Part shown: positions 17,376 through 57,220 of the stretch, in pieces | How the letters are laid out: every line of letters starts with the position of its first letter | How positions within the stretch are numbered: position 1 is the stretch's first letter | DNA from: a virus | Taxonomy: Duplodnaviria > Caudoviricetes | Strand: one strand, 5' to 3' | IMG/VR virus record: IMGVR_UViG_3300025000_000104 | Location: 1 to 61,834 of that record | DNA length: 61,834 nt | The notes under the pieces: generated by a model | The model's input: the letters and a program-made list of their open reading frames with translations, nothing else | What the model was told of the DNA's origin: nothing | Databases searched by the model: none | Position numbers and translations under genes: made by a program

Positions 17376-17477
17376 AAAGCAAAGATAGGATAAATAGCGC
17401 AATTTGTCTTAAAAGAGGGTATCCTTTCTACCCTCTTCTTTGTTTTATTTAAATTTGAAAGGTTTTCATAGAAAGGA
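17376..17477 (+). ncRNA. Antisense-loop leader RNA D with two targets
   Basis: AAAGCAAAGA/TCTTTGTTTT outer stem; hairpin with AGCGCA loop; AAAA; GAGGGTA-TCCTTTC-TACCCTC; loop complementary to GAAAGG 17457-17462 and GAAAGGA 17471-17477 (SD). Confidence 0.75.
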
Positions 17478-17484
17478 TGATAAA

Positions 17485-18306
17485 TTGGAACAAATAGAAT
17501 CTAAAATTATTACAAACAACATGAAATATTCAGGTATTTATCTAATTATAAATTTAGTAAATAATAAATTTTATGTTGGTAGTGCCAAAAATTTATGGTC
17601 ACGTAAATTAAGTCACTATAGAGATTTAAGGAATAATAAACATAAAAACACTTATTTACAACACTCTTATAATAAATATGGTTCACAAAATTTTATAATA
17701 GTATTATTAGAAAAAGTAGAGTCTAAAAATGATTTAACTAAATGTGAACAGCATTGGATAGATACATTGGATGCTTGTAATAAGGATATTGCTTATAATA
17801 TATGCCCTACTGCCGAAAGTAAATTAGGTCTCCATCATTCCGAAGAAACTAAAAGCAAAATGAGTAAATCAATGAAGGGGATTAAGCGTACAGACGAAGG
17901 TAAGAAAAATATGAGTATATCTAAAAGCAAAACTATAGTTCAATGTGCAATTGACGGTATGTTTATTAAAGAATGGGAAAGTGCTAATTATGCTTCTAAA
18001 ATATTAAACTTATCACAAACAAATATATCTGGAGCATGTGTCCATAAACACGAATATGCTCATAATTTTCTATGGTTTTTTAAATCAGAATATGAAGAAA
18101 AAGATTTTAATATTAATAAATACATACCAACTATTGGTAAAAAGATTAATCAATTTGATTTAGATGGTAAATTGATTAAAACATGGGACACCTACAAGGA
18201 TATAAGAATAGACCATAAATTTAGAACAACTTATATTCTTGGTTGTTGTGAAGGAATATATAAAAGTCATAAAGGTTTCACATGGAAATATGCTCAAACG
18301 GCATAA
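17485..18306 (+). CDS. GIY-YIG homing endonuclease with NUMOD3/NUMOD1-type motifs
   Basis: SGIYLIINLVNNKFYVGSA; HSEETKSKMS; QFDLDGKLIKTW; start TTG 17485 after SD GAAAGGA. Confidence 0.88.
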   Translation: MEQIESKIITNNMKYSGIYLIINLVNNKFYVGSAKNLWSRKLSHYRDLRNNKHKNTYLQHSYNKYGSQNFIIVLLEKVESKNDLTKCEQHWIDTLDACNKDIAYNICPTAESKLGLHHSEETKSKMSKSMKGIKRTDEGKKNMSISKSKTIVQCAIDGMFIKEWESANYASKILNLSQTNISGACVHKHEYAHNFLWFFKSEYEEKDFNINKYIPTIGKKINQFDLDGKLIKTWDTYKDIRIDHKFRTTYILGCCEGIYKSHKGFTWKYAQTA

Positions 18307-23905: not shown

Positions 23906-25498
23906 ATGTTAATAACTAAAGAAGTAACTACAACATGGAATCCAACAACAAGAAAATATTATGAGGACTTAGGATATGTCTATACAAAACATAATGAAAA
24001 ATTTATTGTAAAAATAGAAGATTTACATAAAGGTTCTAATTCAAAAATAGATTATCAATGTGATTTATGTGGAGAATTAGCAAACACAATATATTGTAAA
24101 TATAATGAGATGAAAAATAAATATGGCAAAGATATGTGTAGAAAATGTATATCTAGTAATATTATTCAAAACACAAGAAAACAAAATGATGACAATTATT
24201 CCAGACATGACACTCATGAAAAAAGAAAAGCAGACTTACAAAATTATCTATTGGAGTATAAAACTTTAAACAAAATGACAACAAATACATTTGGTAAAAG
24301 ATTGTATGACAATTTTAAAAGTTACAAAGATGATGTATATGATACCGCAATGGAGTTAGGATATAAAATAGAAGATATTTCTAAATCAATGCCTAAAGAT
24401 TATTATATAAAATATCCAGAAATATTAAAAGAAAAATTAATATCTTTTACAACTGAACATAAAAGATTTCCTAGAATAAAAGAAATGGAAAAAGTATTAC
24501 AAATCAATACTCATTTTATTAGTGATTTTGGAGGACTTGATGAGTTTAAGAAATTAATAAATTATGATGATAGTAAAGATTTGATAGATTTAAGAGGAGA
24601 CTACAACCGTTCGATAGTAGAGTTAATAACGGCGAATTACTTCTGTTCACAAAGTTTAAAAGATAAATATACTAGAGAACAATATCCATTTCCAAAAGAA
24701 GAAGGTTATTTTAGGTCTGATTTTACTTTTTATTTAGATAATAATAAAGAATTACATGTTGAGGTATGGGGTTTTAGAGAATGTGAAAAAACTTCTGAGA
24801 AAGCAATTCGCTACCATAAGGTTAGAAAAATTAAAGAAGATTTATATGAAAAATACTCTGATGATATAATATTAATCAGTATAAATTATGAACTTTTTGA
24901 TAAAAAGTATGATGAAATACAAAAACATTTGTATAAATTATTTTCTCCATATATTGCTTTAAGATTTAAAGACGTATCTTATAAAAAGTTACTATCTCCT
25001 TCTTTGCTTAGTGATGAAGAGTTATTTAATGAAGTTATGGTTATAAGTCCAGATGGAATAACACTTCCTACAGCGTCAGATTTATCTTCACATAGTGCAG
25101 GTTTGTATTATCAAATATTAAAAAGGGGTTATACATATAATGGATTTGCTAAGAAGTATGGAGTTAAGACAAAAAACAATAAAACTGAATGGTCTAAAAA
25201 ATTAGTATTTGAATATTTTGGGAAGATAATAGAAGTTGGAAAAATAATTAATAGAAAATCTATGAACGAACAACATAGTAATCTCGCAGGTGCTCTTAAA
25301 AAATATGGGCAGGTAACTAAATTAAAATTAGAGTATTTTAATAAAATTAATATAATTCCTATACAAGAGTTAAGATGGATTAAAAATTTAATAAATAATG
25401 ATATTGGTACTACAGCAAAATATTCTAATAAAGACATTGATAAAGCAAAACAAATCTTAGATAAATACAATAACAATCTTCAACTTAGTGCTAAATAG
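23906..25498 (+). CDS. Putative homing endonuclease-like protein (PD-(D/E)xK-type)
   Basis: Shared MLITKEV..W...YY...GY...VKIEDL...CDLC N-terminus; YFRSDFTFY...LHVEVWG. Confidence 0.65.
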   Translation: MLITKEVTTTWNPTTRKYYEDLGYVYTKHNEKFIVKIEDLHKGSNSKIDYQCDLCGELANTIYCKYNEMKNKYGKDMCRKCISSNIIQNTRKQNDDNYSRHDTHEKRKADLQNYLLEYKTLNKMTTNTFGKRLYDNFKSYKDDVYDTAMELGYKIEDISKSMPKDYYIKYPEILKEKLISFTTEHKRFPRIKEMEKVLQINTHFISDFGGLDEFKKLINYDDSKDLIDLRGDYNRSIVELITANYFCSQSLKDKYTREQYPFPKEEGYFRSDFTFYLDNNKELHVEVWGFRECEKTSEKAIRYHKVRKIKEDLYEKYSDDIILISINYELFDKKYDEIQKHLYKLFSPYIALRFKDVSYKKLLSPSLLSDEELFNEVMVISPDGITLPTASDLSSHSAGLYYQILKRGYTYNGFAKKYGVKTKNNKTEWSKKLVFEYFGKIIEVGKIINRKSMNEQHSNLAGALKKYGQVTKLKLEYFNKINIIPIQELRWIKNLINNDIGTTAKYSNKDIDKAKQILDKYNNNLQLSAK

Positions 25499-30815: not shown

Positions 30816-32366
30816 ATGTTAATTAGTACAGAAGTAGAAGTGGTTTGGTCTAAGTGGAAAAAAGAATATTATATTCTAAGAGGTTATTGTTTTACAAAAA
30901 TAGGTGATATATTTATAGTTAAAATTGAAGATGTTGATCCAAATTCTAGTACAACCATCGAATATAAATGTGATTATTGTAAAACACCTCAAAAAATATA
31001 TATTAGAGATTATAATAAACAAAAAAGAGATGTCATAAACAAAGACTGTTGTGGAAAATGTGCTCATCTAAAAAATATTGCAATTAAGGAGGAAAAATCT
31101 GAATTAGGATTATTAAACAAAAGTGATTATGGTTACTGGAAATTTTATTCAAGTAGATTAAAAGAATTGAGTATATTTTTAAAAGAGAATAAAGTTGAAG
31201 ATTTACACAATGACAAATATTCACCACTTACTGAGTCTATTTATAGAAATAAAGATAATATTATAGATATGATACTTGAGTTAAAATTAAATGTGTATGA
31301 TGTTTGTGATGATTTACATAATTTGTACTTTCATATAAATAAAAATAACATTGAAAATATAATTGCTATATTTATTGATAAGAATAAGTATTTCCCTTCT
31401 TTGTTAGAAATGTCAAATATTTTACAACTTTCATATAGAATTTTGGTTAAATGTGGAGGATATTACTGTATTAAAAACAACATGGGTTTCAATAGTGATA
31501 TTTCTAATACTAAATTAATAAACATTAAAAGTAACATGGAAACCTTAGAAAAATATAAGGGCATTAGTGGAGTTTATAAAATAACAAATATAATTAATGG
31601 TAAAGTTTATATAGGCCAAGCAATGGATTTATGGAATAGAATTAATTCTGGATATATTTATTCGTTGCCAAAAGGAAGTTGTCATAATATTCATCTTCAA
31701 AGAGCATGGGATAAAGATGGAGGAGAAAATTTTTATATTGATATTATTGAGACATGTGATATTAAAATTTTAACAGAAAGAGAACAATTTTGGATTAATC
31801 AAACTCAATGTTTTAATAATAAGTTTGGTTACAATATTCTAGAATTCGCAGATAGTAATAGAGGTGCTAAAATCTCTGAAGAAACAAGAAAGAAGATAAG
31901 TGATGCTTCTAAATTAAGATTTGGGTGGCATCATACACAGGATGTCAAAGATCATCTATCTGATATACGTTCCAAATCTATTATTCAGTTAGATTTAGAT
32001 GGAAATTATATCAAGGAATGGAGAAATTCTAATGACGCATCAATTGCATTAACTGGAAAGAATACGAACGCTACGAATATAAGAGAATGTGCAAATGGGA
32101 GAGGAGCTTCATCTTGTGGATTTTTATGGATAAATAAAGATGAGTATAATAAAGAAACATTTAATAAAATGGATTATGAAAATAGAGATAAAACTAAAAG
32201 AAGAGTTGTTCAGTTAAGTCTAGATTGTGAATATTTAAAAACATTTAGAACAATGACAGAAGCGAAGAACGAAACAAAAGCAAGTAATATAAGTGCATGT
32301 CTATGTGGATTACAACATAAAAGTGGTGGATTTAAATGGATGTATGAAGAAGATTATTTAAAATAA
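30816..32366 (+). CDS. GIY-YIG homing endonuclease with N-terminal CDYC extension and NUMOD motifs
   Basis: SGVYKITNIINGKVYIGQA at mid-protein; ISEETRKKIS; QLDLDGNYIKEW; GGFKWMY. Confidence 0.85.
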   Translation: MLISTEVEVVWSKWKKEYYILRGYCFTKIGDIFIVKIEDVDPNSSTTIEYKCDYCKTPQKIYIRDYNKQKRDVINKDCCGKCAHLKNIAIKEEKSELGLLNKSDYGYWKFYSSRLKELSIFLKENKVEDLHNDKYSPLTESIYRNKDNIIDMILELKLNVYDVCDDLHNLYFHINKNNIENIIAIFIDKNKYFPSLLEMSNILQLSYRILVKCGGYYCIKNNMGFNSDISNTKLINIKSNMETLEKYKGISGVYKITNIINGKVYIGQAMDLWNRINSGYIYSLPKGSCHNIHLQRAWDKDGGENFYIDIIETCDIKILTEREQFWINQTQCFNNKFGYNILEFADSNRGAKISEETRKKISDASKLRFGWHHTQDVKDHLSDIRSKSIIQLDLDGNYIKEWRNSNDASIALTGKNTNATNIRECANGRGASSCGFLWINKDEYNKETFNKMDYENRDKTKRRVVQLSLDCEYLKTFRTMTEAKNETKASNISACLCGLQHKSGGFKWMYEEDYLK

Positions 32367-32383: not shown

Positions 32384-33391
32384 ATGACAAGAGGTAGAGT
32401 TTATAATTACATATATAATGAAGAGGATTGGCAAAATGTCAATCCTTTAAATAAAGAAATAATGGAAGATTATAAAGCAGAGTTAAAACAAAATCAAAAA
32501 TCAAATGGTACTATTCTTCAATACTACGGGGATTGGCGTATCGTAATGCTTTATATCTACAGAAAATTAAATAATAAATATATCCTTGAATTATCTAAAA
32601 AAGATTTTAGGAGATATAGTTTATGGATAACTGAAGAACTTAAAGTTTCTAATGCTAGACATAATAGACTTATGAGTGCATTAAGAAGCCTATTAACTTA
32701 TTGTGAAGAAGATGATGATCTTGATTATGAAAATAATACAGCTAGAAAAGTGAAAGGGTTGAGAAAAGATCCAGTAAAAGATATTGTATTTTTAACAAAC
32801 GAACAAGTAATGAATTTAAAAGAAGAGTTAATTAAATCAGAAAAATATATGTTAGCTACAATTTTGATGCTTGCTTATGATTCCGCAGGACGAAAGAATG
32901 AATTATTTCAAGTGCTAAAAGAATGTTTTTATGATAAAAGTAGAAATCACACCAATATAGTAATTGGCAAACGTGCTAAGAAATTTTCATTACTTTATTT
33001 TGACGCAACAAAAGAATGTGTTGAATTGTATTTAAAACAACGTGGTGAAGATGATTTAAAAGAAATGTGGATTACAGGGAAGGGTGATAATAAAACACCT
33101 GTCACACTAGGTACAATATATGATTGGTTTGTAGAAATGAGTAATTTATTAAGTAAATTAGAAGGAAAGAAAATTGAATTTAACGTTCATAGTTTTAGGC
33201 ATATTTCTTTAGAAAATTATTCTACAGGAGAACATTATATGTGCGAAAAATTAGGGAAAGAAGATGGATTCCAACTTTCTGATTTACAGTTAATTGCTCA
33301 TCACGATTCAAGTGAGGTAACTAGCGGATATTTAAAAGATAAGAAAGATGAAAGATTACAAGAAATGTTTGGAATTAAGATTGTGGACTAG
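32384..33391 (+). CDS. Tyrosine recombinase (XerC/D-like; YomM-like position)
   Basis: Catalytic residues R (AGRKNE), K (GKRAK), HSFR, H (AHHDS), Y (TSGY). Confidence 0.88.
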   Translation: MTRGRVYNYIYNEEDWQNVNPLNKEIMEDYKAELKQNQKSNGTILQYYGDWRIVMLYIYRKLNNKYILELSKKDFRRYSLWITEELKVSNARHNRLMSALRSLLTYCEEDDDLDYENNTARKVKGLRKDPVKDIVFLTNEQVMNLKEELIKSEKYMLATILMLAYDSAGRKNELFQVLKECFYDKSRNHTNIVIGKRAKKFSLLYFDATKECVELYLKQRGEDDLKEMWITGKGDNKTPVTLGTIYDWFVEMSNLLSKLEGKKIEFNVHSFRHISLENYSTGEHYMCEKLGKEDGFQLSDLQLIAHHDSSEVTSGYLKDKKDERLQEMFGIKIVD

Positions 33392-33451
33392 AGAATAGAA
33401 AAGCACATTTAATTTTAATTTAATTTTTAATAATTCTCCCATAAATAATCC

Positions 33452-33558
33452 CATCATATCAATCCACACGCATCAGAATCGCCTGTGTTGAGTCAGAATT
33501 TATCATCAATATGATTGTATAGGTCTGATTAATCTAAACGCTTAAAACAGATTTCATA
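33452..33558. repeat. ~105-bp candidate recombination site, copy 1
   Basis: Colinear (one indel) with 36752-36861: shared TGT..TGAGT...AATT, TATGATTGTA..GGT, GCTTA.AA..GATTT. Confidence 0.5.
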
Positions 33559-33679
33559 CAAATTCTATACAATAATTTTAATAACATCAAACAAAAAATA
33601 AATATAATTTATCACAACAATTATAACATTATATTCTTATTATATCCAATTTAACTCTATTTAACAACAAAATCTATTA

Positions 33680-33709
33680 TTGACCATCATCCTCCCCTTA
33701 CTATATAAT
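33680..33709 (+). promoter_or_regulatory. SigA-type promoter for the Ig-domain gene
   Basis: TTGACC-18 nt-TATAAT. Confidence 0.55.
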
Positions 33710-33758
33710 AAACACAGAATTACATTATTACAATAAATAGTAAGAGGAGGAAAACAAT

Positions 33759-34964
33759 ATGAAAAAACTGTTAACCACAATCACATTATCTCTATCCTTA
33801 TTATTAACTCCTATCTTAACAACTCCTACATTAGCATCAGAGGTTATTTCGCCACAATCACAACAATCTATTTTATCGACAAAAACAATAAAACCAACAA
33901 AAGTAACACTAAATTGCAAAACAACAACCTTAAACACAGGTTCAACCGCAACATTAACACCAATTATATCACCGTCAACAGTCACAAATAAGTCAGTTAC
34001 TTGGAAATCTAGTAATACTAAAATTGCTACTGTAGACTCATCAGGATTAATCACTGGAATTAAAGCAGGGAAAGCAAATATTACAGTAACTACTATAGAT
34101 GGTAAAAAGAAAGCGACATGTAAAGTTACGATAAAAACTGCACCAATTGTAAAAGTAACTGGAATCAGTTTAGATAAAAGTTCAATGACTATTAATGTAG
34201 GAGATACTGAAACATTAATTCCTACAATAACACCAGATAATGCGACAAGTCAAAATATCACTTGGGAATCAAGTAATAATAAAGTAGTTAAAGTTGATTC
34301 AAATGGGAAAATTCAAGGTTTAAAAGCTGGAAATGCAACTATAGCTGCAATAAGTAAAGATGGTAGTAAAAAAGCTAGGTGTAGTGTAACCGTAAGAGAT
34401 ATTCAAATTCCTACTATTGTTTCAATCGTTGATATAACTCAAACTATAACTCAAGGCGATAACTATACTTTACCATCAATGGTCGAAGCTATAATGTCAG
34501 ATGAAACAAAGAAACAAGTTGCAATAACTTGGAGTTCATTAATTGTTGATACTAATAAAACAGGAACATATATATTTTATGGTACTGTCCAAGGATGGAA
34601 TAAAGATGTTAAATTAACATTGATTGTAACCTCCAAAGTTCAAACAATTGAAGATGTACAACAATTAATTGTAGGTAATTGGGTAACCTCGAATTATAAA
34701 ATAGGACTTGAATTTTCTAATAATGGATCTTTAATACAATCTTACTATTACACCAATTCATGGTACACAAAAGATGAAATAGAGTATAGTATCATAAGTC
34801 CTACAGAAATGAAATTTAAATATATTAGATGGTATGATAGTATGTTTGACAGATGGTTTATTAGTAAGGATGATGATAAAATATTTAATTTCACAATTAA
34901 TGATAAAGAGTTAACTATTTTAAATTGGAGTCAATATGGAGGGGCGACATTTAAAAAATGGTAG
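33759..34964 (+). CDS. Secreted Ig-like domain protein (two Big_2 plus one Big_4-type repeat), moron-like
   Basis: Signal peptide MKKLL...TLA; TWKSSNTKIATVDSSGLITG and TWESSNNKVVKVDSNGKIQG; YTLPSMVEA...GTYIFYGTV. Confidence 0.85.
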   Translation: MKKLLTTITLSLSLLLTPILTTPTLASEVISPQSQQSILSTKTIKPTKVTLNCKTTTLNTGSTATLTPIISPSTVTNKSVTWKSSNTKIATVDSSGLITGIKAGKANITVTTIDGKKKATCKVTIKTAPIVKVTGISLDKSSMTINVGDTETLIPTITPDNATSQNITWESSNNKVVKVDSNGKIQGLKAGNATIAAISKDGSKKARCSVTVRDIQIPTIVSIVDITQTITQGDNYTLPSMVEAIMSDETKKQVAITWSSLIVDTNKTGTYIFYGTVQGWNKDVKLTLIVTSKVQTIEDVQQLIVGNWVTSNYKIGLEFSNNGSLIQSYYYTNSWYTKDEIEYSIISPTEMKFKYIRWYDSMFDRWFISKDDDKIFNFTINDKELTILNWSQYGGATFKKW

Positions 34965-34997
34965 TTTTATAGTTATTTGATTATTATTTAGTTATCT

Positions 34998-35050
34998 GAC
35001 CTCTGTGTTTACAGGGGTTTTTTATTGTGATTGTAAAATTAATTTACAAG
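34998..35050 (+). repeat. Terminator plus left arm of site copy 2, duplicated at 36715-36772
   Basis: GACCTCTGTGTTT(A)CAGGGGT...TTTATTGTGATT...TAAAAT(T/C)AATTT(A/G)CAAG present twice. Confidence 0.75.
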
Positions 35051-35113
35051 GATGTGCGGAAAGTCCACTCCTTCAGGTGTGGGATGGATAGCACAATAAT
35101 GTGTATAAAATAG

Positions 35114-35142
35114 TTTACAACATACACATTATATAGTATAAT
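35114..35142 (+). promoter_or_regulatory. IS promoter, probably leaderless for tnpA
   Basis: TTTACA-17 nt-TATAAT with ATG at 35149; overlapping inverted repeat AATGTGTAT/ATACACATT. Confidence 0.6.
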
Positions 35143-35148
35143 TATTTT

Positions 35149-35190
35149 ATGGAAAATAAATATCGAAAAACTAACACAACAGTATCTTTA
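35149..35190 (+). pseudogene. tnpA: N-terminal stub of IS200-type TnpA (Y1 transposase)
   Basis: MENKYRKTNTTVSL resembles Firmicutes TnpA N-termini that continue ...NYHFVFCP; the rest is absent. Confidence 0.6.
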
Positions 35191-35243
35191 GCAGTGGATT
35201 ATAATAAACCATATATAATTAATATATTGGAGGTGAATATCAA

Positions 35244-36377
35244 TTGCTTAAAGCATTCAAATTCAGACTATATCCAAACAAAGAACAAACAACATCAATC
35301 AACAAACATTTAGGTTCAAATAGGTTTGTCTATAATCATTTTCTTGCTAAACGAATTGAAATGTATAAAGATAATAAACAGACTTTAACTTACAATCAAT
35401 GTGCAAATTCCCTTCCCCAACTTAAAAAAGAATTTGAATGGCTTAAGGAAATTGATAGTATATCCCTTCAGCAAACTCTTAAAAACTTAGATTTAGCTTA
35501 TCAGAATTTCTTTAGAGAAATTAAAAAATGTAATAGTAATCAAGGATTTCCTAAATTCAAATCTAAAAAAGATAATCATAAATCTTATAGAACCAACGTA
35601 ACTAATAATAATATTAGAGTTGAAGAAAATAGAGTTAAATTACCCAAACTTGGTTTAGTAAAATTTGCTAAATCAAAAGAAGTTTTAGGACAAATTAAAA
35701 ACGTAACAATATCTCAAGTACCTAGTGGAAAGTATTTTATTTCTATTCTTTGTGAAGTTATGGAGCCTATTAAACTACCAAAATCAGATTTAAATATTGG
35801 TATTGATTTAGGCATTAAAGATTTTGCCATCACATCTGAAGCAGAAATTATTGATAACCCAAAATACTACCGTAAATATGAAGACAAACTAGCTAAACTC
35901 CAAAGAAAACTTTCCAAGAAACAAAAAGGAAGTAAAAATAGGAATAAAGTCAGAATTAAAGTAGCTAAACTTCATGAAAAAATAACTAATACTAGAAAAG
36001 ATTTTCTTCAAAAAATATCTACTAGACTTATTAATGAGAACAAAATTATTTGTTTAGAAGATTTAAATGTTGAAGGGATGGTTAAAAATCATAAATTAGC
36101 AAAAAGCATTTCAGATGCATCTTGGAGCATTTTTATTACAATGCTTACTTATAAAGCTAATTGGTATGGTAGAGAAGTTGTTATAATAGACAGATATTTT
36201 CCATCTTCACAATTGTGTCATGTTTGTGGATATAAGAATGTTGAAATAAAAGATTTGAATGTCAGAGAATGGACTTGTCCAGAGTGTGATTCACATCATC
36301 ATAGAGATATAAATGCAGCTATTAATATTAGAAATGAAGGACTAAGAACTGTTAGGATTAGTAGTGTAAATAAGTGA
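35244..36377 (+). CDS. tnpB: TnpB RNA-guided endonuclease
   Basis: [14 protein letters not shown]-terminus; RuvC triad intact ([18 protein letters not shown]); CHVCG...CPECD zinc finger. Confidence 0.95.
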
Positions 36378-36507
36378 AATTAATAAATAAAATAATAACC
36401 GTAGGAACTATGGGGATAGCCTGTGGAGATGGAGATTACGAAATTGATGAAACAGGAATCATGCGATTTAAGTCGTGTGAGGTTCAATATTATGATATGT
36501 ATGCTTT
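36378..36507 (+). ncRNA. TnpB omega RNA 3' scaffold plus predicted guide (36488-36507, TATTATGATATGTATGCTTT)
   Basis: ACCGTAGGAACTATGGGGATAGCCTGTGGAG and GAAACAGGAATC...TTCAA are typical of tnpB 3' ends; 5' boundary uncertain. Confidence 0.7.
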
Positions 36508-36673
36508 TAGCTATGCTAGTTTTTCAGAATCAATAAAACCTTATGGATGGACATATTATAAAACTGATGTTGATTATCAAGGTTATTCTATTTTCTATTT
36601 TAGAAAAGGAAGTTCATTAATAGGAATGGCATGGATCGGATATGATAGAGTTATTTATGGGAAGATTCGTTAG
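36488..36673 (+). pseudogene. 3' remnant of a gene truncated at the IS right end
   Basis: Open frame YYDMYAF...GWTYYKTD...IYGKIR* followed by the same terminator as the Ig gene. Confidence 0.55.
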
Positions 36674-36712
36674 AATTTATTGGATTTAGTTTGGGTGAGA
36701 TTGTGTTGTGCT

Positions 36713-36739
36713 AAGACCTCTGTGTTTCAGGGGTCTTTT
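36713..36739 (+). terminator. Intrinsic terminator (near copy of 34998-35023)
   Basis: AAGACCTCTG-TGTTT-CAGGGGTCTT-TT. Confidence 0.75.
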
Positions 36740-36751
36740 ATTGTGATTCTG

Positions 36752-36861
36752 ATTATAAAATCAATTTGCAAGCGTGAGGATTCAGTGTACTGAGTTTAAA
36801 TTGTTTGTTGGTATGATTGTAAGGGTATTGTGGTTTGATGGCTTAGAATTGATTTTATGAT
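36752..36861. repeat. ~105-bp candidate recombination site, copy 3, with imperfect terminal inverted repeats
   Basis: ATTATAAAATCAATTTGCAAGC ... GCTTAGAATTGATTTTATGAT. Confidence 0.55.
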
Positions 36862-36934
36862 ATTTAGTTAAAAAAAGAGGCTCTGTGAGATAGAGTCTCT
36901 TTAATATATTTATTTATTACTTATACTAAATTCC

Positions 36935-37747
36935 TTATCCAAATACAACTAAATTCTTACTTTTCTCCTTTCTATCTAACAATATATCATAAATATAATC
37001 AATTCCAATTGTTTTAACTCTTGTTAATTCTGAATCAATATCATCTCTATCATCATTGTCACCAGAAATATTGAAGTAATTTTCAAAACCGCTATTTGGT
37101 AAGTTCTTATATCTTCCTTTGATTTTATTTTTGCTAATAATACCACAATCTCTAAGAATACTTGGTAGAGTTTTCTTATTGACTTTAATATTACTACCTT
37201 CCTCTTTACTTCTAGTGCTTAACATTTTTGAAACTTGCTCAAATGTATATGTACCTTCTGCATCAAGAAATACTCCATATTTATCAAGTTTAGGTTGTGC
37301 TTCTTCTAATTGTTGCTCGACAAATAATCTTTTTTGTCTTTCTTCTTTGAGTTGAGTTGCTAATTGGATAATAAAATCTGGATCAGTAAGAGTTTTTTCT
37401 ATTACTTCTTCTGTCATATAAGCACCGTGTTTTTGAATTGTAGGAAGAACTTCGTCAAATATCCAAGATTCAAATTTTTCAGCAGAAGATAGTTCGCTAC
37501 TTGCTACAAGTCTATAAATATCTCCTTCGGGAATAATATTTACTTCGATTGTCTTAGTTTTACTTTGTGGATGCGGTAGGTTGTGTTTTGCCACCCACTT
37601 GCAATGACGTTTAATTGCATTGATTGTATCTTTATATCCAAGTGCGGTAGCAATATCTTTTGCTACAAAGAAGATTTTACCTTTTACATCTACTGTTCTA
37701 ATTAGACCGAATTCCTCACTATTGAAAATTTGTAAATTGTTTGTCAT
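36935..37747 (-). CDS. BRO-N domain antirepressor
   Basis: LQIFNSEEFGLIRTV...FVAKDIATALGY...IPEGDIYRL...FESWIFDEVLPTIQKHGAY...PDFIIQLATQLKEER. Confidence 0.88.
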   Translation of the reverse strand: MTNNLQIFNSEEFGLIRTVDVKGKIFFVAKDIATALGYKDTINAIKRHCKWVAKHNLPHPQSKTKTIEVNIIPEGDIYRLVASSELSSAEKFESWIFDEVLPTIQKHGAYMTEEVIEKTLTDPDFIIQLATQLKEERQKRLFVEQQLEEAQPKLDKYGVFLDAEGTYTFEQVSKMLSTRSKEEGSNIKVNKKTLPSILRDCGIISKNKIKGRYKNLPNSGFENYFNISGDNDDRDDIDSELTRVKTIGIDYIYDILLDRKEKSKNLVVFG

Positions 37748-38690: not shown

Positions 38691-39176
38691 ATGTTTGTAT
38701 TGAGAGAAATTGAAGTTAATGAGTTAATTACTGAGTCAGATGCTTTTACTGGTAAAGAGGTTCAGGTGTTCTTATCTCCCATTAATTCCAAAAACACTTA
38801 TAAACAATTTAGGTTGAGAAATGCTGGAGATAATCTGGAATTATATGACATTAATATTGATAATCCTACTATGCAAGAATTGATTATTCCAAAAGATGCT
38901 ATTAAAGAAATTACGTATTTTGAAGGGGAAAATATCTATAATTCAGTATTTTCAATCGCATTGAATCATGGTCAAATTGATTTTTGTGTTAGTGAAAAAC
39001 CAATGGTTTGTAAGAAATGTAAAAAATTATTAGATAGACATTATGACCCTTGTTGGCAAATTAATCAGGTTGGTAGATATGGTAGTTTATGGGACAATGA
39101 TCGAGTTGTGATTGATTTATGTGAAGATTGTTTATTGAAGTTTCTTGGTTATAAAGATGGTGATTCGGATGAGTGA
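38691..39176 (+). CDS. Hypothetical protein with C-terminal zinc finger
   Basis: CKKC...GRYGSLWD...DLCEDC. Confidence 0.65.
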   Translation: MFVLREIEVNELITESDAFTGKEVQVFLSPINSKNTYKQFRLRNAGDNLELYDINIDNPTMQELIIPKDAIKEITYFEGENIYNSVFSIALNHGQIDFCVSEKPMVCKKCKKLLDRHYDPCWQINQVGRYGSLWDNDRVVIDLCEDCLLKFLGYKDGDSDE

Positions 39177-40482: not shown

Positions 40483-40651
40483 TAGCAGACTTTGGACGCT
40501 TAGTTTGCTATTTTATATGGGAAGTGATTGCCTCCAACGTCACTTCTTTTGTTTTGGGAGGGTGGGAAACTGCTCTCTCTTTTTGTATTTGTTTTGTTGG
40601 AGGTTGATTAAGTGGTTAAAGATGATAAATAATAATTTAGAAAGTTGGAGG
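40483..40651 (+). ncRNA. Antisense-loop leader RNA G with terminator and two targets
   Basis: Hairpin 40483-40510; hairpin 40520-40547 with loop TGCCTCCAAC; terminator 40556-40584; GTTGGAGG at 40596-40603 and 40644-40651 (SD). Confidence 0.75.
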
Positions 40652-40659
40652 AATGTAAA

Positions 40660-43230
40660 ATGAGTAATAATGTTGAAACAAAGGTTTGTAAGGTTTGTGG
40701 TAATGAGAAGTCGGTTAGTGAGTTCGGTTCAAAAAGGAATATGGTTTGTAAAACATGTAAATGGATAGAAGATCATGAAGATTTAGATATGATTAACGAT
40801 TTATCCAAAGATGAAAATGTTATAATTCTAGATTATATTCTAAACAGTAGAATAAACTTTTTAAATGAATTTGAAACCATTTTACATAAACCATTAAATG
40901 ATATTCTTATTAATATCCAAAAATTAAATATAAGAAATTATAATTTGACAGTTAAAATAAATTGCAATGCCTGTGGCAAAGAAATTTCTTATAAACTTAC
41001 GTCTTATTTAAATAGAGACAATTATTTTTGTAGTAGGGAATGCCAAAATTATTTTCAAAGTTATTCTTATGGATGTAAAGATGGTTATCAGAAATGCGGA
41101 TTTTGTACTCAAGAAAAACCCTATGATGAATTCAGTAAAAATGGTAAAGACAAATATGCCACTGTTTGTAAAGTATGTGAGGCTATCAATAAAAGAAATA
41201 TAATTTATGACAATATTTTCACAGAACAAATAGTGCATATGATATTTGACAATATATTAAATAGCAAAATTGAATCACTTAATCAATTATCTTTATTAAT
41301 AAATATAGAATTAGATTTATTAATACCTTTTGTCAAAATTATTAATATTAGTAAGAAGCCAATTAAGTTGGAATTTAATTGTCCAGTTTGTAGCAAACAA
41401 GTTTTTAGGATTATTTCTTTAATGGAAAGTGCAAATGAGCATTATTGTAGCAAGGAATGTTTTGATATTGATCAATCAATGGAAATATTAATGGAGTGCA
41501 AATGGTGTGGAAAAGAGTTTAATAAAACTCCATTAAAAGATCAAGAGAATTATTTTTGTTGCCATGATTGTTCTACAAAATATCATGCCAAAAAGAGAAC
41601 AAAGGATTTAATAGTTGCTAATTGTGAATTTTGCGGAGAAGAATTTGAAAGAAAAGAATATAATACAGGTAAAATATATTGTTCAGATGAATGTAGGGCT
41701 AAAGGATTTAATTTAAAAATGAGTGGTAAAAACAATCCTAAATATGTAGAAAGATTGACTATTAAATGCGACTGGTGTAAAACAGAATTTGGAGAAACTG
41801 AGAATAGTTATAATCAGTCTACAAATCATTTTTGTAGCAAAGATTGTGCTCGTGCTTACCACGCCAATGTATTTTCTCAAACTCCTGAGTGGAAAGAGTT
41901 CATGAGAGTTGAGATGGTCAATAGATTATCAGATGGCATTATGTCACATACAGATACCAAACCGCAGTTAGCAGTAAATGATATATTGAAGGAATTAGAC
42001 GTAGAAAATGAAAATGAATATAATTGTAAATATTACGCTATTGATAATCATTTAACTGAGTCTAATCTTTTCATAGAAGTAATGGGGAGTTTTTGGCACA
42101 CAGATCATCGAATATTTGATAAAATAAATTATCTTTCTCAAGCAACGGGTATTAGTAAAGACAAAGCAAAGAAAACATATATTAAGAAATATTATCATAT
42201 AAATATGTTATATCTTTGGGAATATGATATAAATAATGATAGAGGACTGTGTAAGGAACTGATAACATTATATGTAAATAATAAAGGTGTGTTAGATAAT
42301 TATCATAGTTTTAATTATCATCTAAATAATGGAATTTTAACAATAAACAAGAATATTGAAATTCCATATATGGACTATGATATTGAAGATTTAAATAAGA
42401 TAATTGATCTGTCTGTTAGGGAGGCTAGAAGTACATATCAACCAGAAAAACATATTACATATAATTGTGAATATTGTGGCACAGAAACATCTTGCATGTT
42501 GACACAATATGATAGAGTAGGTCATCATTTTTGTTCAAACAAATGTAATACAGCTTATTATGGAGCAAAAAGATTGAAATCAAAACAACTGTGTAATGTT
42601 TGTGGTAATAATATACCTCATAAGAATGGTTTGTGCAAAGTTTGTACATATAAAAATACTCATGATATATTATATTCTGAAATATGGACAGAAGAAATAG
42701 GAGATATAATTTTAAATAATGTTTTATATAAAAGAATTGAGTATTTAAATGAATTGGAGGAGATATTAAATATACCATTAAAGGATATATGTGAATATAT
42801 AAAATTAATAGGTTATGCTTCAACATTGAGAACACAAAGAGTGTGTTTACAGTGCGGTGAAGAATTTACTTTGCCTATGAACAGAATTATAAGTGGCAAG
42901 GATAAATTTTGTTCTCCTGAATGCAGTCAATTATCCAAAAGAGATAGAATTAAATTAGATTGTGAATGTTGTGGAAAGGAAATAAGCAGAACACAAAGTC
43001 AATATGATAAATCAAAAAATCACTTCTGCTCTCATGAATGTTCTGACAAGTGGATGAAGGAAAATAGAGTTTCTACTAAGATTGACAAAGTATGTGAAAT
43101 TTGTGAAATAGATTATCAGGTAGTTCCATCTCAATCTGAGTCAGTAGTGTGTTCTAGAGAATGCCAAGGTAAGTGGCAATCGTTACATTTGGTTGGAGAA
43201 AATGCTAATGGGTATAAAGGTAATAAATAG
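40660..43230 (+). CDS. Large multi-zinc-finger endonuclease (central Vsr/PD-(D/E)xK-like domain)
   Basis: Many CxxCG...FCSxxC repeats flanking YAIDNHL...LFIEVMGSFWH...LYLWEYDI; start ATG 40660. Confidence 0.7.
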   Translation: MSNNVETKVCKVCGNEKSVSEFGSKRNMVCKTCKWIEDHEDLDMINDLSKDENVIILDYILNSRINFLNEFETILHKPLNDILINIQKLNIRNYNLTVKINCNACGKEISYKLTSYLNRDNYFCSRECQNYFQSYSYGCKDGYQKCGFCTQEKPYDEFSKNGKDKYATVCKVCEAINKRNIIYDNIFTEQIVHMIFDNILNSKIESLNQLSLLINIELDLLIPFVKIINISKKPIKLEFNCPVCSKQVFRIISLMESANEHYCSKECFDIDQSMEILMECKWCGKEFNKTPLKDQENYFCCHDCSTKYHAKKRTKDLIVANCEFCGEEFERKEYNTGKIYCSDECRAKGFNLKMSGKNNPKYVERLTIKCDWCKTEFGETENSYNQSTNHFCSKDCARAYHANVFSQTPEWKEFMRVEMVNRLSDGIMSHTDTKPQLAVNDILKELDVENENEYNCKYYAIDNHLTESNLFIEVMGSFWHTDHRIFDKINYLSQATGISKDKAKKTYIKKYYHINMLYLWEYDINNDRGLCKELITLYVNNKGVLDNYHSFNYHLNNGILTINKNIEIPYMDYDIEDLNKIIDLSVREARSTYQPEKHITYNCEYCGTETSCMLTQYDRVGHHFCSNKCNTAYYGAKRLKSKQLCNVCGNNIPHKNGLCKVCTYKNTHDILYSEIWTEEIGDIILNNVLYKRIEYLNELEEILNIPLKDICEYIKLIGYASTLRTQRVCLQCGEEFTLPMNRIISGKDKFCSPECSQLSKRDRIKLDCECCGKEISRTQSQYDKSKNHFCSHECSDKWMKENRVSTKIDKVCEICEIDYQVVPSQSESVVCSRECQGKWQSLHLVGENANGYKGNK

Positions 43231-44954: not shown

Positions 44955-47900
44955 ATGAGTGAAAATATAGGAATTAATTTACAAGCAGGATTGAATGTAT
45001 CTCAGTCAACAATTATTATAAAACAACAAGTACAAAAAGTTCAAGACCTTTTAAAACCATTGAATATAAAAATAAATAGCGATACTTTAGTAAAAGAATT
45101 CGACAAAGTTTCAACTAGTATTAAAGTTGCTACAGATGGAACTTCGAGAATACAAAAAAACATTATTAACATAGCAACTGAAGAAGGAAAATTAGTACAG
45201 ATAACCCAAGCATACAATAAAGAAATAAATGCTATGGCCGTTTCTGGGATTAAAATAGTTGATAACCTAAAAGCTCAAGCAAATGAGGCAAAAAAAGTTA
45301 CTGAAGCAGTAAAGAAATCTCAACAAACTATTTCTGATACAGCCAGAAAAATGAGTGTAGATGAAGAGAATAAAAGAATATCTACTGTTACAGAAGCGCA
45401 AAAAAGAATTGAGCAAAGAATACTAGGCAGTAATCAAACTATATCAGAACAGCAAAAACGAATGAATTCTGTGAATGCAAATAACTATGAGCAAGTTTGG
45501 TTAAAAGCATTTCAAAGAGTAGAAGCAGAAGAATTAAGATTAGCAAATATGATGGGTAGAATGAACGAGCAATCACAAGCGAGGGTTTCAAGTCAAAACA
45601 ATAGAAGTGATTTAGCTCAAAACACAGCAATTAATAATGCTTCTGACAGTGCTTATGTCCAAGCGCAAAGAGATGAACAATCAAGACTTAGGGCAAGACA
45701 AGAAGCAAGTGATACTGCTCGTAGAATGATGGCAGATGAAGAAAATCAAAGGGTAGCAACTACAACTAATGCTCAGAGAAGAATTGAACAAGCAATTTTA
45801 GGATCTAATGAAACCATTACTCAACAACAAGCAAGAATGAACTCATCTCAAGCAAATGGCTATAGATATGAGCAAATGTTTTTACAAGCAAGTAGAGAAC
45901 GAGGAGCATTAGATACTAGAAATGCTGAACTTGAATCTCAAAGACTCATTGCTTCTACTAGAAATTTACAAGCAGAAAGACAGCAAACGGCAGAATTACA
46001 AAGACAAGTTGCATTATATCAAGAACAAAATGCAATACAACTTAGGAATCTACAATCACAATATGGTAGTTTAGCTAGAACACCTGAAATACAGTCTCAA
46101 ATTTCTGCTATTCGTGGAACAGTTGGCGGTTTAAGCAGTTCTGTTTTAGATGCAAATGGTTTTAGAACTCAATCTGCCCAAATAAATACAGCTATAAGTG
46201 GAATTAGAGCAAGTTTAAATGAAGCAAGAACTGCATCTGATAATTTTGGAAACGACTTGGTAAAAAATGGAATTAAAATGCTTCAATGGGGAGTTATAGG
46301 AGGAATTCTGTTCGGAACCCTAAGGCAAATAAAGGAAGGATTTTCCTTTATAAATGACCTCGATAAAGCAATGACAAATATTTCCATGATAACAGGAGAA
46401 TCTAGAAACTCTATTGTCGAGATGACCAAGGCATATGCTGATTTAGCGACACAATTACATACCACTACTGGCGAAGCAATGAAATCTGCAGAAGAATTCT
46501 TAAGGGCTGGTCACAACCAAGAAGAAACTTTAAAATTAATTCAATCTGCTACTGTGATGGGTGCTATTGCTGGACAAGACTCAAAGTCAAGTGCAGATCA
46601 ATTAATTGCAATTACAAATGGTTTTAAAATGTCTGCTGATCAGGCTATAGATGTTGTTGATAAATTGACAACAGTCGACAATATGTCTGCTACTTCGACA
46701 AAAGAATTAGGAACTGCATTAGAACGAACTTCGGTTTCGGCACAGATGGCAGGAACCTCATTTTCAGAATTAGTTTCATATATTGGTACGGTTTCTAGCA
46801 TTTCCAGAAAAAGTGCGAGTTCTATTGGCGAAAGCTTTAAGACAATATTTTCCAGATTTCAAGATGTACGTGGTGGAAAGAATTTTGATGCAGAAAATCA
46901 AGATATCTCAAACGTAGAACGTGATTTTAAAAAATATGCTGATATATCTATAAGAGAAACATCTGGTGAGTTCAAGGATTTCTCAATTGTGATAAATGAG
47001 TTAAGTTCTAAGTGGAATACGCTTTCCGAAGTGGCCCAGAGTGCGGCTTCAAAAGCTCTGGCAGGAACGAGACAAAGAGAGAATTTCTTAATTCTTATGA
47101 ACAATATGGATACAGCATTAAAATTACAATCAGCTCAATTGGATTCAAGTGGTTCAAGTATGACTCGCTACGGAGAATTTGCAAAATCTACAGAAGCAAA
47201 GTTGAATGATCTAACAAATGCAGTTCAGAAAATTTGGCTTAATTTATTGTCATCTGAAGCTATAAATAGTGCAATTGAGGGAATGACTAAATTTGTTGGT
47301 GTTATTGATAACGCCACATCGATTTTTGGTGGATTTAATACTGCATTATATTTAGTGATTGCAACATTATCGATATTTAAAGGTCAAGCAATTGCTGGAG
47401 CTATTGCTGCTTTAGGTAAATTCGCATTAGCTAATGGGATTGCCGCAACAGCAACTAAAGGCTTTGCTGTTGCGTTAGAATTTTTAAATGCTAACCCAAT
47501 AATTCTAGCTCTTACTGCAGTTGCTGCAATAACTGCTGGACTTGTTCATTACGCTAACCAACAAGCTAAAGTAAAAGAACAATTAGAAGCAACGGTAGTA
47601 GCACAAGAAAGTTTTAATTCTATTCTTAAAGATTTCCAAAACACTCTTGATCCTAAAAAAATAGATGAACTATCTACCAGTCTTGAAAAATTAAAACAAA
47701 GTTCAAACTATGATGAAACAATTAAAAAAATTCAAACATTAAAAGATGAAATAGCAGGATTACAGGAATCTGAAGTTGAACAAGGAGCAGACTGGACAAA
47801 AACAATTGCAAGTAAAACCAAAGAAATAGAGACTTTAACCGCATCAATAAAACCATATACAGATGCACAGTCTAAATATAACGAACAACAAAAAATCGCT

Positions 47901-52967: not shown

Positions 52968-53031
52968 TTAAAATGAAAGAGTATGTGAAAACCATACTCT
53001 TTTGTGTACATAAATAAAGCATACAAATTTT

Positions 53032-53134
53032 AGCAAGCAGATGGAGATTGCAACTCCACTTTCCTCATTCACTCCGAGGAATTCTGCTTGCTTTTTATAT
53101 TGTCAAAAAATGGAGTGAAACTATGAAGGAGTGA
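53032..53134 (+). ncRNA. Antisense-loop leader RNA H with two targets
   Basis: AGCAAGCAGA-[TGGAG-ATTGCAA-CTCCA]-CT-[TTCCTC-ATTCACTCC-GAGGAA]-T-TCTGCTTGCT-TTTT; loop complementary to GGAGTGAA 53112-53119 and GGAGTGA 53128-53134 (SD). Confidence 0.8.
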
Positions 53135-53139
53135 TGATT

Positions 53140-54507: not shown

Positions 54508-54565
54508 AGCTATGCGTTACAGTATTCAAAGAAATAAAAGTACAATTTATATGGTTTGTGTTTTA

Positions 54566-54600
54566 AAGAGTTGGAGGATTAATTTCTTCTAACTCTTTTT
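54566..54600 (+). terminator. Intrinsic terminator
   Basis: AAGAGTTGGAGGA...TCTTCTAACTCTTTTT. Confidence 0.7.
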
Positions 54601-54698
54601 GATAAATTAAAGATATTAGATTTGAAAGGAGATGATTATTTTTAATTTAGAAATAGCAATACGAAAACAATATAAATAATAATTTAAGGAGGATTAAA

Positions 54699-56324: not shown

Positions 56325-56339
56325 AAAGGAAAATGGTAA

Positions 56340-56809: not shown

Positions 56810-56940
56810 TAGACTCATTATGTCTAGTAACACAATTTAAATAAAAATAAAAAAGAGAAGATAATTATGAGTTATCTTCTCTAATATCATAAATATAAAA
56901 TCCCAAAATAATAATCCCAAAATAAAGGACTGATAAATAA

Positions 56941-57204: not shown

Positions 57205-57220
57205 AGGCAGGTGAAAATAA

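Follow-up and report, generated by a model that had tools for sequence, protein, structure and literature searches.

Within the 61,834-nt window analysed here (the whole stretch of Caudoviricetes DNA available to us), the stretch between a tyrosine recombinase gene and a convergent anti-repressor-like gene (Ant) appears to be a hypervariable accessory-gene slot of large uncultivated SPbeta-like siphoviruses. Its right edge would be a conserved non-coding element, situated immediately before the bidirectional terminator of Ant. The leading reading, at about even odds, is that this slot resembles the promoter-early stem-loop (PeSL) mobile regulatory cassettes described for T4-type phages (Arbiol et al. 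2010, PMC2839356; Comeau et al. 2014, PMC4122927), and that its genes are shuffled by general recombination.

The first-pass annotation had read the region as an integron-like array, and the recombinase, sites, promoter, Ig-domain gene, terminators and TnpB gene do lie where it placed them. The recombinase gene (32384..33391, plus strand) encodes Rec1, a short Xer/Cre-like protein of 335 aa. It matches phrog_36816 (E 1.1e-43) and the integrase family phrog_1 (E 3.7e-21), with a PF00589 match (25.8 bits) slightly below the cut-off of 27.1; the XerC model gives 42.6 bits where its cut-off is 335. Residues R170, K196, H269, R272, H306/H307 and Y316, whose catalytic role was assigned by eye, are invariant in four orthologues. 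Further downstream, a sigma-70-like promoter is predicted at 33680..33709 (plus strand; TTGACC-18-TATAAT, 11 of 12 matches), ahead of the Ig-domain accessory gene (allele 1; 33759..34964, plus strand). Its 401-aa product carries Big_2 in two stretches (E 2.5e-34) and Big_4 (E 2.1e-18), has an N-terminus that looks by eye like a signal peptide, and is followed by an intrinsic terminator (34998..35019, plus strand; a 9-pair stem, then a T run). At the slot/Ant boundary lies the bidirectional terminator (36874..36902; 13-pair stem), which is kept 3' of the element in relatives. The BRO-N/KilAC anti-repressor-like Ant gene itself (36935..37747, minus strand; Bro-N E 3.4e-19, ANT E 5.9e-8, phrog_130 E 2.3e-61) forms the element's conserved right-hand flank.

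Two full copies and one partial copy of the element are present in the window, all on the plus strand. Copy 1 (site 1; 33453..33563; nhmmer 83.7 bits, E 1.1e-24) consists of an A-type left arm and a core, with the core pattern at 33484-33524; a longer model matches it at 33458-33534 only, i.e. over left arm and core. Copy 3 (site 3; 36749..36863; 65.5 bits, E 4.5e-19) has a B-type left arm, a core (36786-36826) and a right arm. Copy 2 (35020..35050) is a B-type left arm that aligns with the copy 3 side and is truncated by an insertion sequence (IS). As the annotation had proposed, sites 1 and 3 are homologous direct repeats. Their best local alignment (33453-33557 with 36755-36858) has 64 of 105 columns identical and one gap, and its score of 21 (+1/-1) was reached by none of 500 shuffles (11.7 +/- 1.5). 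Against a background of 1646 real 150-nt contig segments, taken on both strands, the two sites were each other's best non-self match, the runners-up scoring 16-17. Under +2/-3 scoring only TATGATTGTA.AGG is left, a score equalled by 440 of 1000 shuffles, so that the pair alone is weak; their homology is settled by the element family found in relatives. The strict core pattern (up to 3 mismatches) occurs twice in the window and in none of 100 shuffles, and the two window cores are 68% identical (28/41 positions, counted by eye). Terminal inverted repeats had also been ascribed to site 3. A perfect 12-nt repeat does exist there (36755-36766 and 36847-36858; 1 of 1000 shuffles had one as long), but it is not a family feature, since repeats of at least 9 nt are found in just 7 of 36 sequences and at varying positions. 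The element also contains a weak promoter-like sequence, TTGAGT-16-TATGAT (9/12 at site 1), which did not appear in the promoter scan of site 3 and whose -10 hexamer is variable at its second base across the family.

Searches with the strict core recovered nine stretches in viral contigs, and a relaxed form recovered 41 in metagenome contigs. The family has the consensus core TGTGTTGAGTCAGAATTTATTGTTGGTATGATTGTATGGGT with CAATC/GATTG motifs on its flanks, about 80-135 nt in total. These motifs reach 2.49 per 100 nt inside the element (121 in 4860 nt) versus 0.22 outside it (272 in 126050 nt). A minus-strand Ant-like or g272m gene comes next after the element in 32 of the 41 metagenome loci, and the gene upstream is variable (Rec2, Rec2', Ig, g404, the helicase-like g512 and g654, g183m and unknowns). 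To the left, the slot is always bordered by a recombinase gene, which in 'empty' forms directly adjoins the element: Rec2 in L015, L016, L023 and L054, Rec2' in L005, L006 and L058. Rec1 is the direct neighbour in the window. A single copy of the element is the default. All 16 viral or fetched loci with any nhmmer match had one match, versus two in the window, as did 37 of 41 metagenome loci, and the whole records G001, G003, G004, G005, G008 (118 kb), G009 and G010 hold one element each. The non-Ig cargo of relatives, helicase-like genes and genes of no assigned function, has the recombinase on one side and this lone element on the other, and no second site accompanies it. The arms of the element have been reassorted: left arms of A-type and B-type each pair with several right-arm types, and the switch points vary by pair (L047 combines the L005 core with other arms, and L029 and L041 diverge 13 nt past the core). 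Between L054 and L058 the core differs at 2 of 41 positions, and their Ant-like proteins are 47% identical. To judge from these sequences, the element is strongly constrained and probably a protein-binding or regulatory site.

The Ig gene is the one gene family that is bounded by sites. Together with its own promoter and terminator it is bracketed by two 79-nt cores in three contigs, the window included (the others being L038/L039 and L060/L061), and a fourth (L033) is compatible with this order. L001 has the same left context as L038, a single core and no Ig gene; the overlap is 79 nt, and the difference between the two is a clean insertion duplicating exactly the core. The L001 element is 80% identical to copy 1 of the window, the two cores within L038 are 83% identical (34/41, counted by eye), and the upstream copies of the window and L038 stop at the same model position (112-116). 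The Ig promoter region is common to the Ig genes of L019, L020, L038 and L051, and the window protein is 55% and 53% identical to the homologues of L020 (569 aa) and L019 (574 aa). Five contigs combine an Ig gene and one element with ~400 nt or more of upstream sequence (L019, L020, L024, L050, L051), and none of them showed a tandem Ig gene. The expectation of site-bounded cargo in relatives was borne out for the Ig module between its cores but not for other cargo, which lies beside a single element. The two full copies of the window would stem from an Ig-domain moron positioned 3' of the resident copy, bringing its own core at its 3' side.

The IS (35051..36487, plus strand) belongs to the IS200/IS605 family and resembles its tnpB-only members, with a TnpB above the NCBIfam cut-off (NF038281, 555.7 bits vs 425) and a conserved 3' end common to another copy. 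Its tnpB (35244-36377, plus strand; Pfam OrfB_IS605, Cas12f1-like_TNB and HTH_OrfB_IS605) is its only gene, there being no tnpA and no second ORF of at least 60 aa in the ORF listing. The right end was placed by aligning the IS with a copy from Clostridioides phage ES-S-0173-01, the similarity stopping at ...GAGGTTCA, and the left end has a 3-nt ambiguity. The left flank reads TTTAC(AAG) and the end TTCA(A); IS608 inserts 3' of TTAC and ends in TCAA. Behind the IS lies a 61-codon 3' remnant (36488..36673, plus strand), corresponding to the last 61 residues of an Ig gene that is full length in L019 and L020. It is 87% identical to their C-termini and 29% identical to that of the window's own Ig protein. 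Scanned as a 99-aa ORF (36374-36673) it had no Pfam or PHROG match, and phage tblastn with the 61 residues gave none. This 'second gene' is thus a further allele of the Ig gene already present, and an array of different cassettes is not seen. It is followed by its own terminator (36713..36737, plus strand; a 10-pair stem, then a T run), and from 36488 to 37308 the copy 3 region is colinear with L020 at 82.8%.

The terminator is indeed duplicated along with the left arm (~34998-35050 vs 36715-36773; score 66 vs 20.9 +/- 3.0, 0 of 1000 shuffles), and this similarity halts at 35048-35051, where the IS cuts site 2. The two IS flanks cannot be joined into a single target, which points to a rearrangement after IS insertion, and the partial site 2, IS and remnant are best read as its product. 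This event would have fused allele 1, its terminator and left arm to the last 61 codons of allele 2 with terminator and element, leaving the third partial copy as a by-product; the simplest route, we infer, would be a crossover of two IS copies from two co-infecting genomes.

It is very improbable that the repeat structure is a chimeric assembly of strains differing in this region. The region is strain-variable, many community contigs break at or near the element, and Logan unitigs too break near 32857-33202 and 36549-36622. Against this, unitigs of run X1 identical to the window cover site 1 plus both flanks (33202-33924), Ig to IS (33900-35522), IS to remnant (35495-36549) and site 3 with its flanks (36622-37045). 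Matching unitigs of run X3 cross the same four junctions, from Rec through site 1 to Ig, from Ig to IS, from IS to remnant and from remnant through site 3 to Ant (both runs belong to a single study, each with its own sample, and X1 is possibly the sample of origin), which argues that the arrangement is genuine. The double-core order also recurs on independent contigs.

A more serious contender, though still an unlikely one, is that the Xer-like recombinase at the left edge of the slot inserts and excises circular modules carrying the ~79-nt core at a resident core, the Ig module being such a cassette. The order recombinase, element, Ig module, element, the two-core contigs, the exact core duplication between L001 and L038 and the common end point of the upstream copies in the window and L038 all fit this. 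So do an intact Rec1 with conserved catalytic-type residues and, as far as sequence goes, CAATC/GATTG repeats resembling a protein-binding array; the 68-83% identity between copies in one genome could be tolerated by a site-specific enzyme. However, Rec1, Rec2 and Rec2' are only 23-29% identical and yet each directly adjoins A-type elements, with Rec2-side and Rec2'-side cores differing at 2 of 41 positions and the Rec1-adjacent core of the window at 6-7, so the element does not covary with the recombinase. Moreover, the element is missing from a 141-kb record whose Rec1 orthologue is 76% identical, the remaining cargo lies beside a single element, and arm switch points are scattered. No lox/dif-type 30-bp inverted-repeat core stands out in the element, its fold check gave no attC-like structure, and the integron-integrase model had no match to Rec1. 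Less probable again is that the element serves the recombinase itself as a housekeeping site for genome circularisation or multimer resolution, as lox does for Cre, or difSL next to xerS, with the duplication around Ig incidental. Gene and element do adjoin at a convergent junction in cargo-free forms with all three recombinases, the element is single, strongly conserved and symmetric in motif layout, and in the cultured relatives Ldl1 and GR1, as well as in SPBc2, the homologous gene is likewise last in its rightward operon, where transcription units converge. Against this reading stand the absent covariation, the up to 5.7 kb of cargo between gene and element in G008 and G009, and G006, where no element was found, and two active direct-repeat sites would delete the Ig gene between them.

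The PeSL-like slot has parallels and differences among known systems. As in the published PeSL descriptions, a short conserved non-coding unit adjoins the stem-loop of a terminator, in a region that is hyperplastic and crowded with non-essential genes; it bounds the genes that closely related phages have gained or lost, and accompanies accessory genes with their own promoter and terminator. Compared with those descriptions, the element is longer, CAATC/GATTG-rich and, by sequence, weak as a promoter; its slot is always bordered by a tyrosine recombinase gene, and it belongs to SPbeta-like siphoviruses rather than T4-like myoviruses. PeSLs are described there in many copies per genome, and the reading is weakened by an element found once or twice and by its poor promoter likeness. 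Integron parts have been reported in phage genomes (PMC9892861), and the tyrosine recombinase gene next to a site, with a gene between two related direct-order sites, recalls them. The integron-like interpretation is supported by the core-bounded Ig gene-plus-terminator module of the window and two contigs, but not beyond it: there is no IntI-type protein or attC-like hairpin, the module comes with a promoter and terminator of its own, sites bound just one gene family, and relatives are single-site. SPBc2 does carry yomM, whose annotation is site-specific integrase, in the equivalent position; it is a short tyrosine recombinase gene between head and tape-measure genes followed by stem-loops and a convergent gene, and the DNA-binding protein, exonuclease, terminase and portal genes of SPBc2 follow one another as they do in the window. 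YomM is only 24% identical to Rec1, and a literature search on its function found nothing.

Under the PeSL-like reading, slot genes would turn over when related phages infect one cell and their genomes undergo general recombination, crossing over within the conserved core and flanks, as PeSL cassettes do in T4-type phages. Illegitimate and IS-mediated events would add to this, and the recombinase would not be required. Against general recombination, cores 68% and 83% identical within a genome make a poor substrate for homologous exchange at present, and site-specific recombination between unlike sites fits this divergence at least as well. The clean L001/L038 duplication counts against it too, as recombinase-mediated circle insertion gives the same outcome, and so does the constant place of the recombinase at the slot's left edge, beside the element in 'empty' forms. 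Nothing ties the recombinase to the element copies. What emerges for these phages is a conserved element of about 80-135 bases that would mark a slot of accessory-gene turnover 3' of a recombinase gene.

All features listed in the first-pass annotation lie where it had placed them. The window (61,834 bases, G+C 29.7%, without a terminal repeat) comes from runs that are groundwater metagenomes, with no RNA run listed, and carries in order PhoH-like, DNA-binding protein, exonuclease, terminase, portal, head and virion protein genes, a RuvC-like resolvase, a tyrosine recombinase (Rec1), a 2670-aa tape-measure protein and tail genes. SPBc2 (SPbeta) has the same gene order (yonN, yonJ, yonF, yonE ... 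yomM ... yomI, against window positions 1–30000 and 44955–60344), which bears out the earlier statement that SPbeta carries a tyrosine recombinase, yomM, at the equivalent position; the literature searched held nothing relevant on yomM. The two differ between the recombinase and the tail genes, where the window has about 11.5 kb of early-type genes (an anti-repressor-like gene named Ant here, an HTH gene, a second Ant and an 861-aa HNH protein) and SPBc2 about 3 kb. Related records of 29–50 kb were rated 15–29% complete and those of 118–141 kb 72%, so that the full genomes are probably well above 150 kb. The gene order of the window is broken up, across the head and tail blocks, by an unusually dense load of at least eight homing-endonuclease-like genes of GIY-YIG, HNH and phrog_12131 types (3649–4404, 6323–7519, 12104–13501, 17440–18306, 23906–25498, 30816–32366, 40645–43230 and 53131–54507).

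Rec1 (32384–33391, plus strand) matched PF00589 over residues 136–317 at 25.8 bits, just under the cut-off of 27.1, and phrog_1 with an E value of 3.7e-21. Residues R170, K196, H269, R272, H306/H307 and Y316, assigned to catalysis by eye, are invariant in four orthologues, and the protein is predicted to have a tyrosine recombinase catalytic domain with the R..K..HxxR..H/W..Y residues. Homologues are present in 170 phage records, in 157 of them over at least 80% of the protein, and those at 40–47% identity belong to siphoviruses of about 74–93 kb of lactobacilli, enterococci, staphylococci, Leuconostoc and Geobacillus. In phages Ldl1 and GR1 the homologous gene also closes the rightward late operon at a convergent junction, and a paper on Lactobacillus brevis phages (PMC6563214) treats such a gene as one trace of temperate ancestry in predicted obligately virulent phages. 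No match to the integron-integrase model TIGR02249 was obtained for Rec1 in NCBIfam at E up to 0.001 (the best model was XerC, 42.6 bits against a cut-off of 335), and phmmer found none among PDB sequences. In a collection of 185,579 species with one genome each there was no Rec1 relative (none of 114 peptide-pattern matches was confirmed), and no integrated copy or attB of a temperate-phage int/attP module was found in these genomes, where the host may simply be missing.

The recombinase gene is followed by copies of a non-coding unit, which we call the element: copy 1 (site 1), a partial copy 2 and copy 3 (site 3). As had been claimed, the two sites are colinear: 33453–33557 aligns with 36755–36858 over 105 columns, of which 64 are identical, and a single gap is needed. 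None of 500 shuffles matched their score under +1/−1 scoring, and each was the best match of the other among 1646 real segments of the contig; under harsh pairwise scoring the alignment was not significant (440 of 1000 shuffles reached an equal score), so that the pair on its own argues weakly, and a permissive control with genome segments was uninformative. The duplication of the terminator plus left arm before the insertion sequence (IS) and again before site 3 is unmistakable (score 66 against 20.9 ± 3.0). Since each junction is spanned by window-identical unitigs in two samples of one study, the arrangement is not an assembly chimera. Copy 3 is bracketed by a perfect 12-nt inverted repeat (36755–36766 and 36847–36858), a length reached in one of 1000 shuffles. 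A related pair, AAATCAATCC ... GGATTGATTT, occurs in some copies with the A-type left arm, and most sequences lack any repeat of at least 9 nt. In the region as a whole, the longest inverted repeat measures 39 nt at 77% complementarity and pairs 33422–33460, just left of copy 1, with 36639–36677 at the 3' end of the remnant ORF that follows the IS.

Joints were examined in the assembled contigs of the runs. Neither an in-register joint from 33502 to 36805 (run X3, shorter side 20 nt) nor one from 36742 to 33483 with 35 letters between was counted as an excision or circle product, because the single element of a relative, aligned to two diverged copies, would give both. In one low-depth contig (3.5, run X1) position 36866, where copy 3 ends, is joined back to 34965, the first base behind the stop codon of the Ig-domain gene, with nine other letters between and out of register with the repeats.

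In L001, a related locus with a recombinase 93% identical to Rec1, a single copy of the element, 80% identical to site 1, stands just before the Ant gene. A 41-nt core pattern built from this copy and copies 1 and 3 had two matches in the window with up to three mismatches, against none in 100 shuffles. It found nine stretches in viral contigs and, when relaxed, 41 stretches on 39 metagenome contigs, with none in the genome contigs of the 185,579 species (one genome per species). Leaving out instances too close to a contig end, 52 had full flanks, of which 36 were distinct. The loci were fetched by the core pattern, which in itself accounts for part of the invariance of its positions; four loci reached through their proteins instead (L001, L019, L020 and L021) all fit the relaxed pattern as well. 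The core is conserved more than its neighbours: between L054 and L058 it changes at 2 of 41 positions, against an identity of 47% for their Ant-like proteins. The motif CAATC/GATTG is enriched eleven-fold in the element (2.49 per 100 nt inside, 0.22 outside), and A- and B-type left arms reassort with right arms at differing switch points. DNA folds of six sites gave z values from −0.07 to −2.98 with differing structures and no attC-like hairpin, and the consensus fold of nine sites (−2.96 kcal/mol, with the covariation term against it) showed no conserved structure. A micro-ORF from the core ATG was discarded, not being conserved across the instances inspected by eye. The right arm in L062 has a tandem duplication of about 19 nt (GGTCTGATTGATTTCG.. 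twice, at about 2042–2080 as oriented). The element, for which Rfam at E up to 1 returned only three chance-level matches far under their gathering scores, is a new, strongly conserved non-coding landmark.

Its position is also regular. Of the 41 metagenome loci, 32 continue with a BRO/Ant-like or g272m gene on the minus strand as the next ORF, corresponding to the convergent BRO-N/KilAC gene Ant of the window (36935–37747, minus strand), and three more with another minus-strand ORF; the others end first or are a second entry of the same contig. On the upstream side the neighbour varies. A recombinase gene takes this place in 3 of 41 loci and a member of the Ig family on about 11 of 39 contigs; the others include a 404-aa gene without known function, helicase-like genes (ResIII/DEAD), a 183-aa gene on the minus strand and several unknowns. 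The recombinase gene adjoins the element in the window (Rec1 stop at 33391, copy 1 from 33453), as do the genes of the recombinases Rec2 and Rec2' in relatives, and PF00589 genes lie 5.7 and 5.6 kb upstream of the single element in the records G008 (118 kb) and G009. The picture is of a slot that lies between a recombinase gene to its left and a single element to its right and holds from none to about 6 kb of varied cargo. The 141-kb record G006, with a Rec1 orthologue at 76%, lacks the element; it also has a second, stronger PF00589 gene (52580–53074 of its contig C1, 115.8 bits, 301-aa frame). PADLOC, run on five cargo proteins of relatives, the window Ig gene and a 161-aa ORF (38691–39176), gave only a weak Cas3-like match, to a helicase-like gene (E 3.8e-4).

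Records carry one or two copies. An element profile matched once in every locus that had any match among 21 earlier loci, and once in 37 of the 41 metagenome loci. Two copies occur only in the window, L038/L039 and L060/L061, in each case with the Ig gene between them; L033 begins likewise with an upstream copy and the Ig gene, and its contig ends too soon to show a second. Relatives therefore do not bear out the predicted arrays of differing site-bounded cargo downstream of the recombinase: a single element is the rule, and only the Ig gene lies between two cores. A profile of the Ig protein found no viral contigs beyond the two already known.

The window Ig gene (401 aa, 33759–34964) has its own predicted promoter, scoring 11 of 12, and its own terminator. 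What had been taken for the remnant of a second gene, and hence of a second cassette, proved to be an allele of the same one: its 61 codons (36488–36673) are 87% identical to the last 61 residues of the proteins of L020 (569 aa) and L019 (574 aa), themselves full-length homologues of the window protein at 55% and 53% identity. From the remnant to Ant the window is colinear with L020 (82.8%), and its own Ig C-terminus, at 29% identity, is a remote variant of this domain. A tblastn search of phage records with the remnant gave no match. The IS (35051–36487), of the IS200/IS605 kind, carries tnpB only (NF038281, 555.7 bits against a cut-off of 425). Its right end was placed at 36486/36487 against the copy in Clostridioides phage ES-S-0173-01, the alignment running to ...GAGGTTCA with a conserved 3' end, and its left end at 35048–35051, where likeness to site 3 stops; the two flanks do not fit as one target. 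Relatives of the IS at 65–70% nucleotide identity occur in phages of Clostridioides, Clostridium botulinum (c-st), Geobacillus, Enterococcus, Brochothrix and Listeria and in Lak megaphages. When phage records were searched by blastn with the region, tnpB accounted for nearly all matches; the sole other one listed was weak and lay in the recombinase gene.

We read the partial copy 2, IS and remnant as a probable IS-associated rearrangement between two Ig alleles. The simplest route would be a crossover between IS copies at different TTAC-type targets, a preference we take to be that of IS608, in two co-infecting genomes. A deletion beside the IS could have left the same sequence if two Ig cassettes once stood there in tandem; no tandem Ig gene is seen in the five single-element contigs that carry an Ig gene with sufficient sequence upstream.

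The comparison of L038 with L001 shows how a double-copy form differs from a single-copy one. On the left, the 404-aa gene, hairpin, left arm and core are continuous between L038 438–2041 and L001 8367–9960 (84%); on the right, L038 3618–4015 matches L001 9882–10292 from the core to the Ant gene (78%). L038 is thus L001 plus an Ig module (leader, promoter, gene and terminator) with a 79-nt core duplication, and in the model the upstream copies of the window and L038 end at the same position. An inserted circle with one core would give this pattern, whether through a site-specific enzyme or homologous exchange. L051 (about 690–760) lacks the upstream copy of L038 (about 1900–2060); the two are homologous on either side of that copy, at a similar hairpin to its left and at the Ig leader to its right. 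A MITE-like reading of this copy, suggested by an 8-nt repeat (TAATGATT/TAATCATT) around it in the same comparison, was dropped given one copy per genome at one locus and the AT-rich sequence.

An integron has a recombinase gene beside its primary insertion site, and so does the window. Integrons carry arrays of different, mostly promoterless site-bounded cassettes, an IntI-type integrase and attC-type folding sites, whereas here only an Ig gene with its own promoter and terminator is bounded by two cores, and neither Rec1 nor the element matched those types. The integron-like interpretation has partial support in structure, from one site-bounded module, and none for the array and the enzyme; most of it is deflated. 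Repeat-bounded indels between close relatives, as known for PeSLs, are seen in L038 against L001, with the 79-nt core duplication and the reassorting arms. PeSLs differ in being present in many copies across hyperplastic regions, against one or two per record here. They combine a terminator stem-loop with a strong sigma-70 promoter; in the window terminators stand directly before copies 2 and 3 and the promoter-like match is weak. This match, TTGAGT-16-TATGAT in the core, scores 9 of 12 at site 1, with none listed for site 3, and matches of its kind show no excess over shuffles (51 against 44.2 ± 7.3). As an active promoter it would produce a short rightward RNA that runs into the bidirectional terminator and is antisense to Ant, and in double-copy forms would read toward the Ig gene. 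PeSLs form mini-circles by exchange between neighbouring copies; according to PMC2839356, these are thought to move by insertion of a circle with one repeat copy. The slot belongs to a kind already known, the hyperplastic regions of phages that have a conserved repeat, whether boundary or regulatory.

As to what moves the module, general recombination at a conserved boundary element is the reading we give about an even chance. Capture driven by the recombinase seems unlikely. The recombinase gene is a constant border of the slot and stands right next to the element in cargo-free forms, the two copies within a genome are diverged (by eye, the window has 28 and L038 34 core matches of 41), and the element appears to resemble a protein-binding array, all of which speak for the recombinase. 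Against this, Rec1, Rec2 and Rec2', all with PF00589 and all beside A-type elements, are mutually only 23–29% identical, and yet the cores beside Rec2 and Rec2' differ at 2 of 41 positions and the core beside Rec1 from them at 6–7; the Rec1 orthologue of the 141-kb record does without an element; site-bounded gene families number one; the arms reassort at differing switch points; and there is neither an integron-integrase signature nor an attC-like fold. Its specific form, a minimal integron-like capture in large SPbeta-like phages, in which a short Xer-like recombinase would insert circular self-expressed modules at a core of about 79 nt at the head/tail gene junction, we consider rather improbable. 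A housekeeping, lox/dif-like role of the element, with the duplication incidental, is given a slimmer chance still.

The element pins down a slot for accessory genes in a family of uncultivated phages from groundwater and serves as a search handle. It led to about 40 contigs, whose cargo varies and includes secreted Ig-like proteins, helicase-like proteins and genes of unknown function. The slot is probably a siphovirus counterpart of the PeSL-driven plasticity of T4-type phages. If capture were true, it would be an exchangeable accessory-gene slot, with a function for an 'orphan' recombinase widespread in large siphoviruses and syntenic with the uncharacterised YomM of SPbeta; and if the neighbouring recombinase acts on the element at all, this would give a function to the YomM-like recombinases of many large Firmicutes siphoviruses.
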